From positions 1-28,317 of the forward strand of contig JAQVML010000001.1 of NCBI GenBank assembly GCA_028703645.1: a DNA stretch of 28,317 nucleotides. The letters are read 5' to 3'. The notes beneath the pieces are model-generated. The model saw only the letters and a program-made list of their open reading frames with translations, did no database searches and was not told the origin of the DNA. The stretch is from Eubacteriales bacterium (GTDB lineage: Bacteria; Bacillota; Clostridia; Christensenellales; CAG-138). This document shows, one piece after another, positions 2,435 to 17,989 of this stretch. How positions within the stretch are numbered: the stretch's first letter is position 1; the number at the start of each line of letters is the position of its first letter. Position numbers and translations under genes: made by a program.

Positions 2435-5400
2435 TTATTGTTTGTATTTTGCGATGAGCTCATCCAGCTTTTCTTGCGAAACGCCAAAATACTTGCGCAT
2501 GTTCTCCAGCGCGTAATCCGGCCGCTGCTCGATAAACGAGCGCATCTGCGCAACGCTGTCCTCCCACGCGCGCATTGAGCTGGGTTTCCCCCAACGCTCG
2601 ATCTGGCGCGGCATTTCGGGCCTGAGCGCCGCAACCATTTGGTCAAACAACGCCGTCGCACGCTGCGCATTAAAATACTGTTCTACCACCTGAACGTAGC
2701 GATCCACGCAATAGTCCCGCCACGCCGCATTTTTCTTTAAGCCGATATAAATTTCGAAATATGTCAGCGACCCATCTGCCGAAGGCACGCCATTGCCGTT
2801 GAAATATTGCCCGATCATGTCTCGCGCCGCGGTCTTATAGGCAAAGTCGAGATCGAAGAACACCGGCCGCCATTTTACCTTATAGTCCGTCGTACGCCAA
2901 TATTTCTGGTTAAACATATCGCTGTTGCAAATATACGTCTGCGCGATGAAGTAATCCGTAAAATAGTCGACATCAATCCACTGCGAAAACTCGGCGAACA
3001 CCGCGTCGTCGCTCAATTTCTCATTCTCCGCAAAGGCACGCACGCGCTTGATATCCTTATTGCCGCCCTTGATTGCCGCCGAGTTGCGGCGAATGAACTC
3101 CACCGTGTCTCCGTCCACGCCGTAGTGCGTCTCCAAAAACGAGCTGTTCTGCTCCTCGTTGAGATCGTAAAGCCCGTTGAATTTGCCGTTGATGTATACG
3201 ACGACGGGACGCGACGCGGAGTTGTCGAGGTTCATTCCTTCGACGAGGTTGTTTGTGAATGCGTCGCGAATGCGCGCTGCGCTCCAATCCTGTCCGCCGT
3301 TTCGCACCACGAGCGCGGAGAACGTGTCAACCTCGTAACCCGGAAAGAACGGATAGGTCACCTTGCTCTGTCCGTAGCCCGCGCGGAGGTTGATGCTGAG
3401 CGACTTTTGCGAATAGATGATGGTTCCCGCTCCCTTGGGTTTGATGCCTGCGGGGAATGAAACCCCGAGCGTTCCATCCGGCTCGTAAAACGAAATGTTC
3501 GCGAGGCGTTCGATCTTGTTAAATTTATCGTCGACGCGCAAAACCGCCTGTACGCGGTCAGGATTTCCATTAATGCAGATCACGGGTACGGTATGCGGCT
3601 CCTCAAACAGATAGGTTGCCGTCGTGATCTCGCTGGCTCGTTTTCCGCTGACGAAGGAAACCGCGCGCAGCGGCGTATTCGCGCTGATTTGCACGGGCTC
3701 CGTATATCTCTTTGAATCGAGCGAAGGCTCGTCTCCATCCGTTGTATAGTAGATCTCCGCGTTGGGATCGTCGCAGGAAATCGTTACGGAAAACGCGCTG
3801 CTGTGATACAGCGTCAGATCAGAAAACACCGGTTGTGGAGCAACACCGTTAGTGATGTCCGTGTTGTTCTCTTTGCCGCGTGTCGGGCTTTGAAAGAACA
3901 CGCGCGCGGTGGCGGTGTCGCTTTCCAGCCTGCCGCTCGTAATCTCCGGCGTGAGTACGCCGGAATCAAACGCGTCTACCAGCGTTCCTTCCGCGTTTTT
4001 CAAAATCAGTGTTTCGCCCGCGGCCGAAATCGAGAACGGCGCGATCCCCGCGCCCTGCTTCACGGACGAGTTGGTGCACTCGATGACGAGATAGTCGCCC
4101 GCGCCAATCGTTTCGCCGGAAAATGTGTAGGGATTCGTCGAGTCGATGCCATCAGACAGTGTCCAGCCGGTCAAATCGATAGCACGTTCCGAGCCATTGT
4201 GCAGCTCGATCCAATCGTTTTCTCCGCTCTTCACCTCGTTTACGGCGCAGACCTCGCTGAAAAATACCCCCGTATTGTCGAAACAGCCGATCTGGTCGGC
4301 TGTTTCAAATCCGTGTACGTTATCGCTGCCCGGCGTCGGCGTTGCAAAATATCGAATGTTGTGCCCGCTGTCCAAACCAACCGAGATGTTATCCCGCGTG
4401 ATGCCGGCGAGCGACATACTCTCCGTTTTCATACCGCTGAGCGTTGTAAAGAACACCTCGTTCTCATCGTCGGTCAACCCGAAGCTTGCGTGCAGTTCTC
4501 CACTTGTGCGATCTTTGCCGGAGAGGAAGATCACCTTGCACTCGCCGGGTTGGAGCGTTACATCCGGCAGCGCCCATTTATAGAGGTCGTCCGAATTGTC
4601 TGAGAGGAAATAGCCGAGCAGTGTTTGGGCTTCGTTGGAGAAATTCTTCAGCTCGACCCATTCCTCGCGGTCGCCGTCCGCGTCGATTGCGGAGAGCGTA
4701 TTATACTTGAGCACCTCGTTGATATGAATGGGATCGGACTGATCCATCACCGTCATTTCAAGCGAGGAAAATGTCTTGTCGCTGTTTGCGGCCTCAAACG
4801 TTGGATAAGCGGTATAGACCGCCATTCCGGTCGCGTCCTTAACCACCGAAACGCCGCCGGGAACACCCGTTTGCCAACTGATCCGGTCGATCAAGTTACC
4901 CTGCAAATCGGAAAGGAGAACCGTCGTGTCCTCGCTGCTGAGTCGAAACGGCGCATGGATTCCGTCTTTCCCGTCGCTGCCGAGTCCCGATAGATAGATG
5001 CAGACATAGCCGCCCGCGGGTACGGTACCGGAAGAAATCTGCCATTTGAGAGGTTTCGTTTCATCGTCCGAGAGACAGTAGTTCTCAAGCTGAATCGCGT
5101 TGTCGCTGTTGTTGCGCAGCTCCACCCAGCGGTAACCGCTCGCGTCGTCGCTCGGCATCACTTCGCTGATCGAAAGCGCATTGAGATTTTGCGCAGAGAA
5201 TACCGAGTCCAATGTTGTAAATAGCGGGCTGTCGTTCGCGGCTCCCGGTGAGGGTACGCCGCAATAGCCGTAAGTGCCGTCTGCCGCGCGCGCATAGGAT
5301 ACATCCGTATACAGCGCGGGAACCTGCATCTGCGCGACGAGTCCGAAATATGCGTCGGTGATAAAGATATAATCGCCGCTCTTGCTCAAACCAAAGTTTG

Positions 5401-5755
5401 TGATCATCGGATTGGTTTGGTCTTCCGTCGCGTTGGTCGCATAGAGAACGAGATATTCGCCTGGTCCAAGCGTCGTGCCTTCGGGTATGACAAACTTATG
5501 CAGCTTGCGCAGGTTGTCCGATACGCCATAGCCGGAGAGGTCCAGCGCGACCGAACCCGAGTTGTAAAGCTCAATCCAGTCCGGCGTACCGAGCGACTCG
5601 TCCACCAGCGAACGCTTGTTGCTGGTGACCACCTCGTTGACCACCAGCGCGCTGCTGTCGACGGTGGCTTTTTGCGAACACGCAAAAAGCAGCGGCAGCA
5701 TAACCGCTACAATGATCGCAATTGCTATCTTTTTCGTCATGGATGTTTTTCTCAA
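2435..5755 (-). CDS. lipoprotein with four lamin-tail domains, a chitobiase/Fn3-like domain and a C-terminal CotH-family kinase domain (start is TTG 5755 or ATG 5740)
   Basis: Signal peptide with lipobox LFA-C; four NEV/SEV...D/EW(I/V)EL.N..lsD repeats; YYTTDGDEP...YTEPV domain; CotH motifs KGAGT, VRNGGQDW, VYINGKFNGLYDLNE, NSDMFNQKYW, KWRPVFFDLDFA. Confidence 0.88.
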   Translation of the reverse strand: MRKTSMTKKIAIAIIVAVMLPLLFACSQKATVDSSALVVNEVVTSNKRSLVDESLGTPDWIELYNSGSVALDLSGYGVSDNLRKLHKFVIPEGTTLGPGEYLVLYATNATEDQTNPMITNFGLSKSGDYIFITDAYFGLVAQMQVPALYTDVSYARAADGTYGYCGVPSPGAANDSPLFTTLDSVFSAQNLNALSISEVMPSDDASGYRWVELRNNSDNAIQLENYCLSDDETKPLKWQISSGTVPAGGYVCIYLSGLGSDGKDGIHAPFRLSSEDTTVLLSDLQGNLIDRISWQTGVPGGVSVVKDATGMAVYTAYPTFEAANSDKTFSSLEMTVMDQSDPIHINEVLKYNTLSAIDADGDREEWVELKNFSNEAQTLLGYFLSDNSDDLYKWALPDVTLQPGECKVIFLSGKDRTSGELHASFGLTDDENEVFFTTLSGMKTESMSLAGITRDNISVGLDSGHNIRYFATPTPGSDNVHGFETADQIGCFDNTGVFFSEVCAVNEVKSGENDWIELHNGSERAIDLTGWTLSDGIDSTNPYTFSGETIGAGDYLVIECTNSSVKQGAGIAPFSISAAGETLILKNAEGTLVDAFDSGVLTPEITSGRLESDTATARVFFQSPTRGKENNTDITNGVAPQPVFSDLTLYHSSAFSVTISCDDPNAEIYYTTDGDEPSLDSKRYTEPVQISANTPLRAVSFVSGKRASEITTATYLFEEPHTVPVICINGNPDRVQAVLRVDDKFNKIERLANISFYEPDGTLGVSFPAGIKPKGAGTIIYSQKSLSINLRAGYGQSKVTYPFFPGYEVDTFSALVVRNGGQDWSAARIRDAFTNNLVEGMNLDNSASRPVVVYINGKFNGLYDLNEEQNSSFLETHYGVDGDTVEFIRRNSAAIKGGNKDIKRVRAFAENEKLSDDAVFAEFSQWIDVDYFTDYFIAQTYICNSDMFNQKYWRTTDYKVKWRPVFFDLDFAYKTAARDMIGQYFNGNGVPSADGSLTYFEIYIGLKKNAAWRDYCVDRYVQVVEQYFNAQRATALFDQMVAALRPEMPRQIERWGKPSSMRAWEDSVAQMRSFIEQRPDYALENMRKYFGVSQEKLDELIAKYKQ

Positions 5756-7170: not shown

Positions 7171-7680
7171 TTAGTCGACAAGTTCGATGACGACCATCTC
7201 CGCTGCGTCTCCGCGGCGCGGCCCGAGCTTATACATACGCGTGTAGCCGCCTTTGCTGCCGGCTTCTGCGCGCTTTGCATACTTCGGCGCAAGATCACGG
7301 AAGAGCTTCTCTACCACTGGATGCGCGCGGTCTTTCGTGCGCTCAGCGTATTCGCTCTTGTTCTCTTTCGCCTGCTTGGGTTCGGGAATATCGTAGACAT
7401 ACGCCATGATCGCGCGGCGAGCGGCGAGCTTGCTCGCCTTGTCGTTGACGACTTCGCGCTTGATGATCTGCGCCTTCTCGTTACGGGATTCCTTCTCTAC
7501 GGTCTGGCTGTTATCGTATTCCTTGACTGCCAGCGTGATGATCTTTTCGGCAATCGAGCGGATCTCCTTGGCGCGCGCTTCGGTCGTGACGACCTTACCG
7601 TTCCAAAGAAGCGCCGTGGTCTGATTCCTCAAAAGAGCGACTCGCTGATCAGAGGGCTTACCCAGTTTGCGGTTCGCCAT
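7171..7680 (-). CDS. rplQ: 50S ribosomal protein L17 (long form with internal insertions)
   Basis: RKLG...[35 protein letters not shown]; last gene after rpoA. Confidence 0.97.
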
Positions 7681-10760: not shown

Positions 10761-11036
10761 CTAACCGATGTTGTAACCGAATAATTTTAACGCATTTCGC
10801 ACATCCGCGTCCAGTATTTCTTTACTTTCTGCGAATTTTTTTGCAATTTCGTCCGATTTTGGGGGCTCAATGTGCAAATGCGAGAGCTTTTTCTTCTTCG
10901 GTCGCGCAAGTTTTCGCGTTTCCCCGTCGCTTAAAAGCACATGGTTCTCATCCGCTATTCCGACGATGAGGAATGCTCTGCCTTTATCATGCCCGGCTCG
11001 CGAGGTGCAAACCCTGCCGATCACCGGTTCGTTCAT
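10761..11036 (-). CDS. KOW-domain RNA-binding protein (L14e-like)
   Basis: GRVCTSRAGHDKGRAFLIV..D...LSDGETRKLARPKKKK.SHL; sits between map and infA with an ATGA overlap. Confidence 0.85.
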   Translation of the reverse strand: MNEPVIGRVCTSRAGHDKGRAFLIVGIADENHVLLSDGETRKLARPKKKKLSHLHIEPPKSDEIAKKFAESKEILDADVRNALKLFGYNIG

Positions 11037-16504: not shown

Positions 16505-16690
16505 TTACCAGCTTGCCTTGCGTACGCCGGGGATCTCGCCCTTATACGCCAGTTCGCGGAAGCAAATGCGGCAGACGCCATACTTGCGCAGAACCGAGTG
16601 GGGCCGACCGCAGATGCGGCAGCGGGTGTAAGCACGGCTGCTGAACTTCGGCTCGCGCGCCTGCTTTAATTTCATGCTTGTCTTTGCCAT
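16505..16690 (-). CDS. rpsZ: 30S ribosomal protein S14 type Z (Zn-binding)
   Basis: 61 aa, [35 protein letters not shown]. Confidence 0.98.
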
Positions 16691-16708: not shown

Positions 16709-17626
16709 TCAGCCCTGCACAAACGGGATGCCAAGCTGCGTAAGCAGTTCTTTGCATTCTTCGTCGGTATTGGCGCTGGTGACGAACACAACGTTCATGC
16801 CGCGTACCTTGTCGACGTCGTCGTAGTTGATCTCCGGGAAGATCAGCTGTTCCTTGAGGCCGAGGGCGTAGTTGCCGCGCCCGTCAAACGCCTTTTCGGA
16901 TACGCCGCGGAAATCGCGAACGCGGGGCAGGACGATGTTGAAGAGCTTATCGACAAAGTAATACATCCGATCGCCACGGAGCGTTACCTTTGCGCCAATG
17001 GTCATGCCTTCGCGAACTTTGAAGTTTGCGACGCTCTTCTTGGCGCGGGTGGGTACTGCTCTCTGGCCTGCGATGGTGGTGAGTTCTTTGATCGCGGCTT
17101 CAATGCCCTTGGGGTTTTCCTTGTCGGTGCCAAGACCCATGTTGATGACGACCTTCTCCAGGTACGGAATCTGCATGACGTTCTCGTAGCCAAACTTTGT
17201 CTTCAGAGCGGGCGAGATCTCATCGATATAACGCTTCTTCAAACGCGGCATACCTTCGAGTTTCTTCATGTCGCCCTGCGCGCCTTTGGCGGCCTTCTTG
17301 GCTGCGGGTTTTGCTGCTGTTTCGGCCTTTTTCTCGACCTTGGCTGCTGCTTCAGCCTTTTTCTCGACCTTGGCTGCTGCTTCCTTGACGGCACCCGCTG
17401 CTTTGGCAACCGTTTCCGCTGCCGCTTCGCTGACGGCTTCTGCCGCTTTTTCAGCGGTTCCCGCTGCGGCTTTGGCTGTCTTCTTCACGGCTTTTTCAAC
17501 GGTTTCTGCGGCTTCGGCGGCCTTGGGAGCTGCCTTCTTCGCGGCTTTCTTTACTTCTTCAACGACCGTTTCGGCTGCTGCTTCGACGGCGTCGGTTACG
17601 GTTTCAATGTCTTTCTTCGTTGCCAC
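16709..17626 (-). CDS. rplE: 50S ribosomal protein L5 with 125-aa Ala/Lys/Glu-rich N-terminal extension (GTG start)
   Basis: Core from 17251: RLKKRY...[57 protein letters not shown] lies 9 nt before GTG 17626, and there is no convincing RBS before the internal ATGs. Confidence 0.95.
17321..17380. repeat. 30-nt tandem duplication (2 copies, 29/30 identical) in the L5 extension
   Basis: ttcggcctttttctcgaccttggctgctgc / ttcagcctttttctcgaccttggctgctgc, encoding [10 protein letters not shown] twice. Confidence 0.95.
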
Positions 17627-17647
17627 TTGTCAGTTCCTCCTTCCGCC

Positions 17648-17989
17648 TTAGTCAATGACTTTACCGCACTTTTTGCAAACGCGGACACTCTTTTGCTTCT
17701 TCTCGCCGGAAATCTCAACTTCCTTGAGTTTGTGGGCGATGCGGGTGGGCTTATCGCACTTGGGGCACACCAGCATGACGTTAGAGGCATGGATGGGGCC
17801 TTCCTTTTCAATACGACCACCGGGCTGGCCTTGCTTACGGGGCTTCACGTGGCGAGTCACCATTGAGGTACCCTGCACGATCACGCGCTCGTCATCAGGC
17901 TGGGCCACCATGATCTTGCCCTTTTTGCCCTTGTCTTTGCCGGAGATGACAACGACGGTATCGCCTTTTTTGACGTTTAAGCTGTTCAT
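17648..17989 (-). CDS. rplX: 50S ribosomal protein L24
   Basis: VKKGDTVVVISGKDKGKKGK KOW motif, EGPIHASNVML, CPKC...CKKC. Confidence 0.99.
   Translation of the reverse strand: MNSLNVKKGDTVVVISGKDKGKKGKIMVAQPDDERVIVQGTSMVTRHVKPRKQGQPGGRIEKEGPIHASNVMLVCPKCDKPTRIAHKLKEVEISGEKKQKSVRVCKKCGKVID

Follow-up and report, generated by a model that had tools for sequence, protein, structure and literature searches.

The gene for ribosomal protein uL5 (rplE) in the 28,317-nt stretch of DNA analysed here (the window) is a 305-codon open frame on the minus strand (16709-17626) that begins with GTG. The initial annotation had read this frame as an ordinary uL5 of about 180 aa preceded by a 125-aa N-terminal extension. 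This raises the questions of whether the additional codons are translated, what kind of protein segment they encode, how that segment arose and what it might do on the ribosome. The division of the protein proved accurate, since the open frame and the placement of the Pfam domains agreed with it exactly. Ribosomal_L5 (PF00281, 3.7e-24) fell at residues 149-205 and Ribosomal_L5_C (PF00673, 7.8e-40) at residues 210-302, both above their gathering thresholds (85.2 bits for a cut-off of 34.9, and 135.4 bits for a cut-off of 27.8, respectively). The canonical core, 180 aa plus stop, thus occupies positions 16709-17251 (minus strand), and residues 1-125 drew no significant Pfam match.

The minus strand of the window carries the S10-spc-alpha ribosomal gene cluster of a metagenome-assembled genome (MAG) of an uncultured Christensenellales bacterium, 2.07 Mb in size and 74% complete. 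Judged by ORF order and translations, with uL24 alone scanned against Pfam, the genes around rplE run rplN-rplX-rplE-rpsN-rpsH-rplF, which places rplE between rplX and rpsN, its position in the spc operon. The upstream gene, rplX (17648-17989, minus), matched Pfam ribosomal_L24 and KOW. Its 113-aa product, uL24, carries CPKC...CKKC near the C-terminus, with a weak Zn_ribbon_3 match (21.8 bits, below the cut-off), and may be a zinc-binding form. A putative short rpsN (uS14), assigned by position and sequence, is a 61-aa ORF with two CxxC pairs at 16505-16690 (minus). Three other products of the window's minus strand are recorded here. In bL17 (7171-7680; 169 aa) the 97-position Pfam L17 model is stretched over residues 16-168, a span that implies ~55 residues inserted internally. 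A 91-aa ORF between map and infA (10761-11036) had no Pfam match at E ≤ 0.001. Adjoining the ribosomal cluster, positions 2435-5755 encode a 1106-aa protein with four lamin-tail domains, Fn3-associated/CHB_HEX_C and a C-terminal CotH kinase domain.

The long form of uL5 has its own start signals. A Shine-Dalgarno (SD) sequence, GGAGG (17636-17640, minus), stands before the GTG (17624-17626, minus) with a spacer of 9 nt, as had been claimed, and the GTG lies 21 nt past the rplX stop codon, TAA (17648-17650, minus). The 20 nt that precede the GTG, GCGGAAGGAGGAACTGACAA, were identical in 26 of 27 relatives from the genus. Two internal ATG codons lie close to the core, M120 (17267-17269, minus) and M126 (17249-17251, minus). 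Neither is conserved, and a scan 4-16 nt upstream found no SD at M120 or M126, in agreement with the earlier statement that the core ATG has no ribosome-binding site.

A search for rplE in 61 related genomes found a match in 27 of the 36 that belong to the same genus; the nine same-genus genomes lacking a match were 56-89% complete, and all compared genomes were MAGs. The extension was present in 27/27 of the matched genomes, at lengths of 114-180 aa and with a shared N-terminus, SD and GTG. Its presence in several single-contig assemblies across the genus indicated that it is not an assembly artefact, and differences in arm length between species consisted of whole repeat units, all in frame. 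In 11 species with the 294-aa form, dN/dS was 0.065 in the extension (dN 0.036, dS 0.56) and 0.090 in the core, and variable sites were distributed over codon positions 1, 2 and 3 in the ratio 16:12:75. These values point to purifying selection acting as strongly on the arm as on the ribosomal core.

Among the five other frames, four gave dN/dS values of 2.3-4.7. The fifth, antisense and with the same wobble positions as rplE, gave 0.11, a misleadingly low value owing to those common positions. Low dN/dS is therefore weakened as sole proof of the frame and does not by itself fix the strand. In that antisense frame an ORF of 127 aa, rich in A, F, S and L, stands open at 17268-17651 (plus) as a mirror image of the composition, solely because the sense strand has no Tyr or His codons. 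The strand is fixed by continuity with an essential gene, by the SD and by data on internal starts. The Met at the canonical core start was replaced by I, T, V, Q, G, K or A in 14/27 species; an internal ATG, GTG or TTG with an SD was found in none of the species examined; and three species (L023, L025 and L026) had no ATG, GTG or TTG whatsoever between -40 and +12 codons relative to the core. Conservation throughout the genus, dN/dS, loss of the core Met and the three species lacking any internal start all bear out the claim that the extension is translated. We conclude with considerable confidence that the 125 codons encode a genuine N-terminal domain of uL5, translated from the SD-led GTG, built of the three parts described below and kept under purifying selection.

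Existing gene calls give a shorter protein. The call made for the window (P0100) is the 180-aa form, and NCBI records PKM40241.1, HWQ96562.1 and MEA5047240.1 give uL5 as 180-186 aa at loci (L053, L051 and L057, respectively) where the SD-led ORF has 294-333 aa. Public protein sets hide the arm because homology-guided pipelines trim uL5 to 180 aa wherever an internal Met exists, while JGI annotates the long protein at full length under the plain label 'L5'. Initiation at ATG 17251 or 17269, with the 125 codons as an untranslated or incidentally open leader or else an assembly artefact, would fit these four shorter forms and the tendency of Ala-rich, GC-rich DNA to keep several frames open, the antisense ORF among them, but is scarcely credible in view of internal starts that have no SD, a residue 126 that is so often not Met, the three species with no start codon near the core, the gulf in dN/dS between the true frame and four of the five others, and the in-frame length changes and single-contig assemblies. 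As for novelty, which the initial annotation had implied for an extension of this kind on bacterial L5, one part stood: no description of a bacterial N-terminal uL5 extension was found in the open-access literature searched. The other part has to be qualified, since the arm is widespread in the genus and already stands at full length in JGI.

What kind of segment is the arm? Residues 1-125 comprise A44 K26 E18 V13 T9 G5 D3 P2, with a net charge of +5, and contain no F, W, Y, R, C or H. The earlier hand count (44 Ala, 26 Lys, 18 Glu and 3 Asp, no aromatic, Arg or Cys residue, a charge of about +5) was exact. Across all ORFs of the 2.07-Mb assembly, the arm holds the 60-aa window richest in A+K+E, at 0.80; the runner-up reached 0.68. 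The arm is made of three parts, a conserved tip of ~45 residues, a run of hendecads that varies in number and a basic Pro/Gly linker. The tip (aa 1-45; 17492-17626, minus) was delimited by alignment conservation and by charge per block, and is the best-conserved section of the arm. Its first 25 residues are acidic (net -5) and are followed by a basic motif at aa 26-36 with a nearly invariant Pro34. K5 and A32 were invariant in the genus alignment, and A2, K4, E8, E24, K26, K30, K31, A33, P34, K35 and A36 were at least 90% conserved.

The second part (aa 46-100; 17327-17491, minus) was recognised from its periodicity and from AF2 as hendecad amphipathic helical repeats, whose copy number varies between species. 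A 30-bp tandem repeat (17313-17383, minus; 2.4 copies, 95% match) corresponds to one extra 10-aa unit in the present gene, absent from the nearest relatives (294-295 aa). The third part, aa 101-125 (17252-17326, minus), is the basic Pro/Gly linker; it ends in KKLEG and has its counterpart in a short tail found family-wide. Two further regularities were considered and given up. Punctuation every 22 residues (P34, G56, G78) was rejected on the grounds that G56 is Glu in relatives and that Pro34 alone is nearly invariant, and a Thr spacing like that of type-I antifreeze proteins was dropped since Thr does not recur at regular intervals of 11.

In residues 1-105, hydrophobicity showed a single strong spectral peak at 3.67 residues (11/3; z 16.5), a height reached by 0/2000 shuffles. 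The best period lay between 3.58 and 3.68 in 15/15 close homologues. At 3.67 residues, z was 16.5-33.5 in 14 of these and 4.8 in the most divergent one (P0113), which peaked at 3.58 and had a z of 13.6 at 3.6. Laid out in 11 columns, the sequence places V, A and I in columns 3, 6, 7 and 10, the a-d-e-h pattern of hendecads, and K, E and T in the remainder. The signature of a heptad coiled coil was missing (z -0.39 at 3.5 residues and -0.28 at 7), and so was that of a single alpha-helix (SAH): opposite-charge pairs from i to i+4 numbered 7, with 7.0 expected (z 0.0). A HeliQuest-type estimate gave a mean hydrophobicity of ~0 and a mean muH of 0.33. AF2, run on a 17-sequence alignment, predicted helices at residues 2-32, 34-60 and 65-99 and a non-helical stretch at 100-117, with pLDDT of 31-55. 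A sequence search of the PDB with the extension returned the designed helical bundle 4uos alone (E 0.087), and a search of the ESM Atlas with residues 1-118 gave no usable match.

On this evidence the arm looks like a long hendecad amphipathic helix with a narrow apolar stripe of Ala and Val. The earlier preference for an amphipathic or LEA-like helix over a histone-H1-like tail was therefore well placed, given one period of 3.63-3.68 over the extension, the Ala/Val stripe, the few Pro residues and the near-neutral charge, and given the contrast with other families in the order, whose uL5 extensions have basic charge, many Pro residues and no period.

The distribution of the arm was followed in 400 genomes sampled from the order. 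The sample included 20 genomes of the family from outside the genus, in 16 genera, and 18 of their loci were compared; the order-wide survey of rplE used the best 150 of 393 matches, and counts for distant families rest on the loci examined. In 17 of the 18 other family genomes (15 genera), uL5 begins with a basic tail of 15-29 aa, MAKKDxxxQAPAKKKKxxEAKPFTEAPRLK. The eighteenth, G228 of genus g33, differs: its arm of 143 aa is periodic (z 18) and shares the VATKKDIE...KKxAPKA tip of the present genus. Among the sampled genera of the family, the long periodic form is restricted to this genus and g33. The motif at the junction with the core reads K(A/P)F(T/S)xxPR(L/M)K family-wide; the close group has KKLEGxPRLK there, and deeper members of the genus retain AKAFT-x-x-PRMK. 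The long module therefore lies downstream of the initiator MA(T)KKD and ahead of the old basic tail. The arm itself arose from the 15-29 aa basic tail of the family, by expansion of a repeat run that still varies, in frame. Capture of a domain from another gene was considered and rejected: at the sensitivity used, the AKE part was confined to rplE in a whole-protein search of 61 genomes, and the organism's own genome had no comparable AKE-rich ORF.

Maximum-likelihood analysis of the uL5 core recovered the family as one clade (100/99), in which the genus, g33 and five short-tail genera grouped in one subclade (100/97). One sequence nested inside the long-arm genus (95/76), at L063 (JAUNCT010000007.1), has a 14-aa tail, MAKKEQAQMAAFDEMPRLK, which suggests a secondary loss of the arm. 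A single gain followed by losses would best fit the shared tip motif, although the 180 columns of the alignment cannot settle the matter.

In other families of the order, uL5 has either no tail or a basic, Pro-rich tail of 16-162 aa. Three of these tails, examined in detail, had no 11/3 period (z -0.9 to 0.1), and the 58-aa tail of L032 gave a weak 11/3 signal (z 5.3). The tail of L035 has 162 aa and a net charge of +19, and that of L036 has 85 aa and a net charge of +12. Other uL5 clusters from metagenomes also have basic tails of this sort. These tails and those of the other families occupy the same site as the arm, from the initiator MA(T) to the PRLK helix, and resemble it in reaching up to ~160 aa; they differ from it in a net charge of +5 to +19 and 5-9 Pro.

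Where would the arm lie on the ribosome? uL5 lies in the central protuberance, turned towards the 30S head, and makes bridge B1b together with uS13 (PMC10531944), in agreement with the initial annotation. In E. coli ribosomes, uL5 with an N-terminal ACP tag served as a FRET partner of N-terminally tagged uS13 (PMC8318882), which indicates that fusions to the N-terminus of uL5 are tolerated and that this terminus is close to the 30S head. Tails that vary from 15 to 162 aa among the order's other families likewise argue for a solvent-exposed N-terminus. An arm starting there would emerge at the central-protuberance surface, close to bridge B1b and to the 30S head, would measure ~15 nm if fully helical, and would project as a ribosome-tethered amphipathic helix. 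It would probably act as the repeats of exchangeable apolipoproteins and LEA proteins do, by making reversible contacts through a weak apolar stripe. The arm could make such contacts with itself (as a hairpin or bundle) or with its counterpart on a second ribosome, or else with the 30S head or a lipid surface. Since the apolar face is made of Ala and Val alone, binding to any of these surfaces is expected to be weak. A matching extension on neighbouring proteins of the central protuberance or head was not found within the window.

Tight conservation, a specific tip and a variable middle together suggest a spacer on which a defined surface makes the contacts, in preference to some bulk property. 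In the role that we tentatively prefer to the others, the arm may add an adjustable and reversible contact at the interface of the head and the central protuberance or between ribosomes. A narrower form of this proposal, in which the arm is a docking device whose apolipoprotein- or LEA-like hendecad helix pairs reversibly with the arm of another ribosome, the 30S head or a membrane, is more speculative still. Compensation for a lost bL31 or bL25 was also considered and rejected, as neither correlated with the arm. bL31 (PF01197) was present in 5/5 genomes examined. bL25 (PF01386) was found in 0/5 genomes of the order (G021, G031, G019, G228 and G040; 93-99% complete), one of which has no uL5 extension, and the same search matched 8/14 control genomes.

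Among known families, the exchangeable apolipoproteins (ApoA1/A4/E, PF01442; apoLp-III, PF07464) share with the arm amphipathic repeats of 11 or 22 residues and a period of 3.67. PF01442 matched 10/17 homologues at E ≤ 0.01 (best 9e-12), with sub-threshold scores, and PF07464 matched 5/17; the uL5 studied here scored far below the PF01442 cut-off (12.6 bits for a cut-off of 90; E 0.11). Unlike these proteins, the arm has an apolar face of Ala and Val alone and no regular Pro punctuation, Pro34 being the only conserved Pro. The match of this uL5 may reflect composition and periodicity alone, and homology of the arm to apolipoproteins is neither expected nor demonstrated. The likeness is relevant to the idea that the arm is a tether to a membrane or lipid surface, in the manner of alpha-synuclein or perilipin, that holds a share of the ribosomes at the cytoplasmic membrane. 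A straight apolar stripe arising from the 11/3 periodicity would suit such a tether, as would the weak apolipoprotein and ApoLp-III similarity of the homologues and a HeliQuest-type discriminant of 1.3-1.6 in some 18-residue windows. However, the arm has no large hydrophobic or aromatic residues, its mean hydrophobicity is near zero and its first 25 residues are acidic, and we consider a membrane tether unlikely.

Group-3 LEA proteins (LEA_4, PF02987) are a second point of comparison. They share with the arm a composition rich in A, K, E and T, the lack of aromatic residues and a hydrophilic, amphipathic helix of 11-mers, whereas the arm is fused to a ribosomal protein and is far tighter in sequence than expected of a bulk protectant. 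This composition, Val included, and the hendecad period follow group-3 LEA logic and would fit a ribosome-fixed protectant of the LEA type, acting against aggregation during desiccation, freezing or osmotic stress in free-living members from groundwater, sediment and digesters. Groundwater, bioreactor and other environmental MAGs appear in the records of the long-form genus, whereas samples of rumen or gut yielded several of the short-tail genera, a habitat contrast drawn from record titles alone. PF02987, however, matched neither this uL5 at E up to 1 nor any of 17 homologues, and the low dN/dS and the specific tip motif speak more for one defined partner than for a bulk effect. We do not regard such a protectant as a likely explanation either. 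A 176-aa protein encoded elsewhere in the same genome (contig C94, plus strand, from base 1036) combines a hydrophobic N-terminal segment with three repeats of DAVTNAADTVKEKAPEYVEKAR; it resembles repeat proteins of the LEA/YtxH type and has no relation to the arm of uL5.

The function ascribed to AKP-rich tails of other ribosomal proteins, and to those of uL5 in neighbouring families, is charge-based binding of rRNA or DNA. A disordered basic tail of this kind, comparable to those of histone H1 or HupB, would account for the motif at aa 26-36 and the linker, both of which resemble such repeats, and it would be in keeping with the basic tails of sister families (L035, L036) and with the low AF2 pLDDT. 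The arm is Ala/Lys-rich like the AKP tails of HupB/Hlp and AlgP, but the similarity is limited to roughly its last 25 residues and aa 26-36: those tails are strongly basic, Pro-rich and non-periodic, and the arm is charge-balanced and helically periodic. The present arm did not fit an H1-like or HupB-like tail, with net +5 over 125 aa, 2 Pro and a strong 11/3 period. Across species the net charge is merely +2 to +15 over 114-180 residues, most arms have 2-3 Pro (13 in the longest form, L022), and the strong helical period of the body is absent from the basic tails. We consider a basic tail that binds by charge quite improbable. The H1-like AKP tails further include the extensions of mosquito RpS6 and RpL23a cited in PMC11764897.

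The arm might also be translated and then removed, as a pro-sequence or as a chaperone for assembly or solubility, with the cut made either ahead of 50S assembly or after it, leaving mature ribosomes with an ordinary uL5. A precedent for processing exists in Firmicutes, where an N-terminal peptide of bL27 is removed by Prp. The conserved junction motif before the core could be a processing site, and purifying selection would fit a chaperone-like pro-domain equally well. Yet the same motif stands in genera with a tail of 15-29 aa, where a pro-domain makes little sense, and a pro-peptide of 114-180 aa would be costly on so abundant a protein; removal of the arm is in our estimation very unlikely.

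On bacterial ribosomal proteins, extensions tend to be short, basic and disordered, and they are interpreted as glue for rRNA. The uL5 arm is no member of the apolipoprotein or LEA families, nor a heptad coiled coil, an SAH domain or an H1-like tail. It is instead a lineage-specific ribosomal-protein extension of unusual structural type. The nearest parallel on the same protein is uL5 of Cutibacterium acnes, whose 31-aa C-terminal extension runs between H84 and H38 (PMC10085706). Both are lineage-restricted additions to a universal protein of the central protuberance, with no proven role. In contrast to the C. acnes extension, which is mostly disordered, the arm is N-terminal, 4-6 times longer, near-neutral and of coherent helical period.

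If the docking proposal is true, the lineage would store, cluster or localise its ribosomes through a core ribosomal protein, and would need no separate hibernation or targeting factor for that task. Bridge B1b, beside uL5, is the only inter-subunit bridge formed between proteins. A long, charge-balanced and periodic arm next to that bridge, conserved at the level of the ribosomal core, suggests a specialisation of the ribosome in uncultured, widespread anaerobes.
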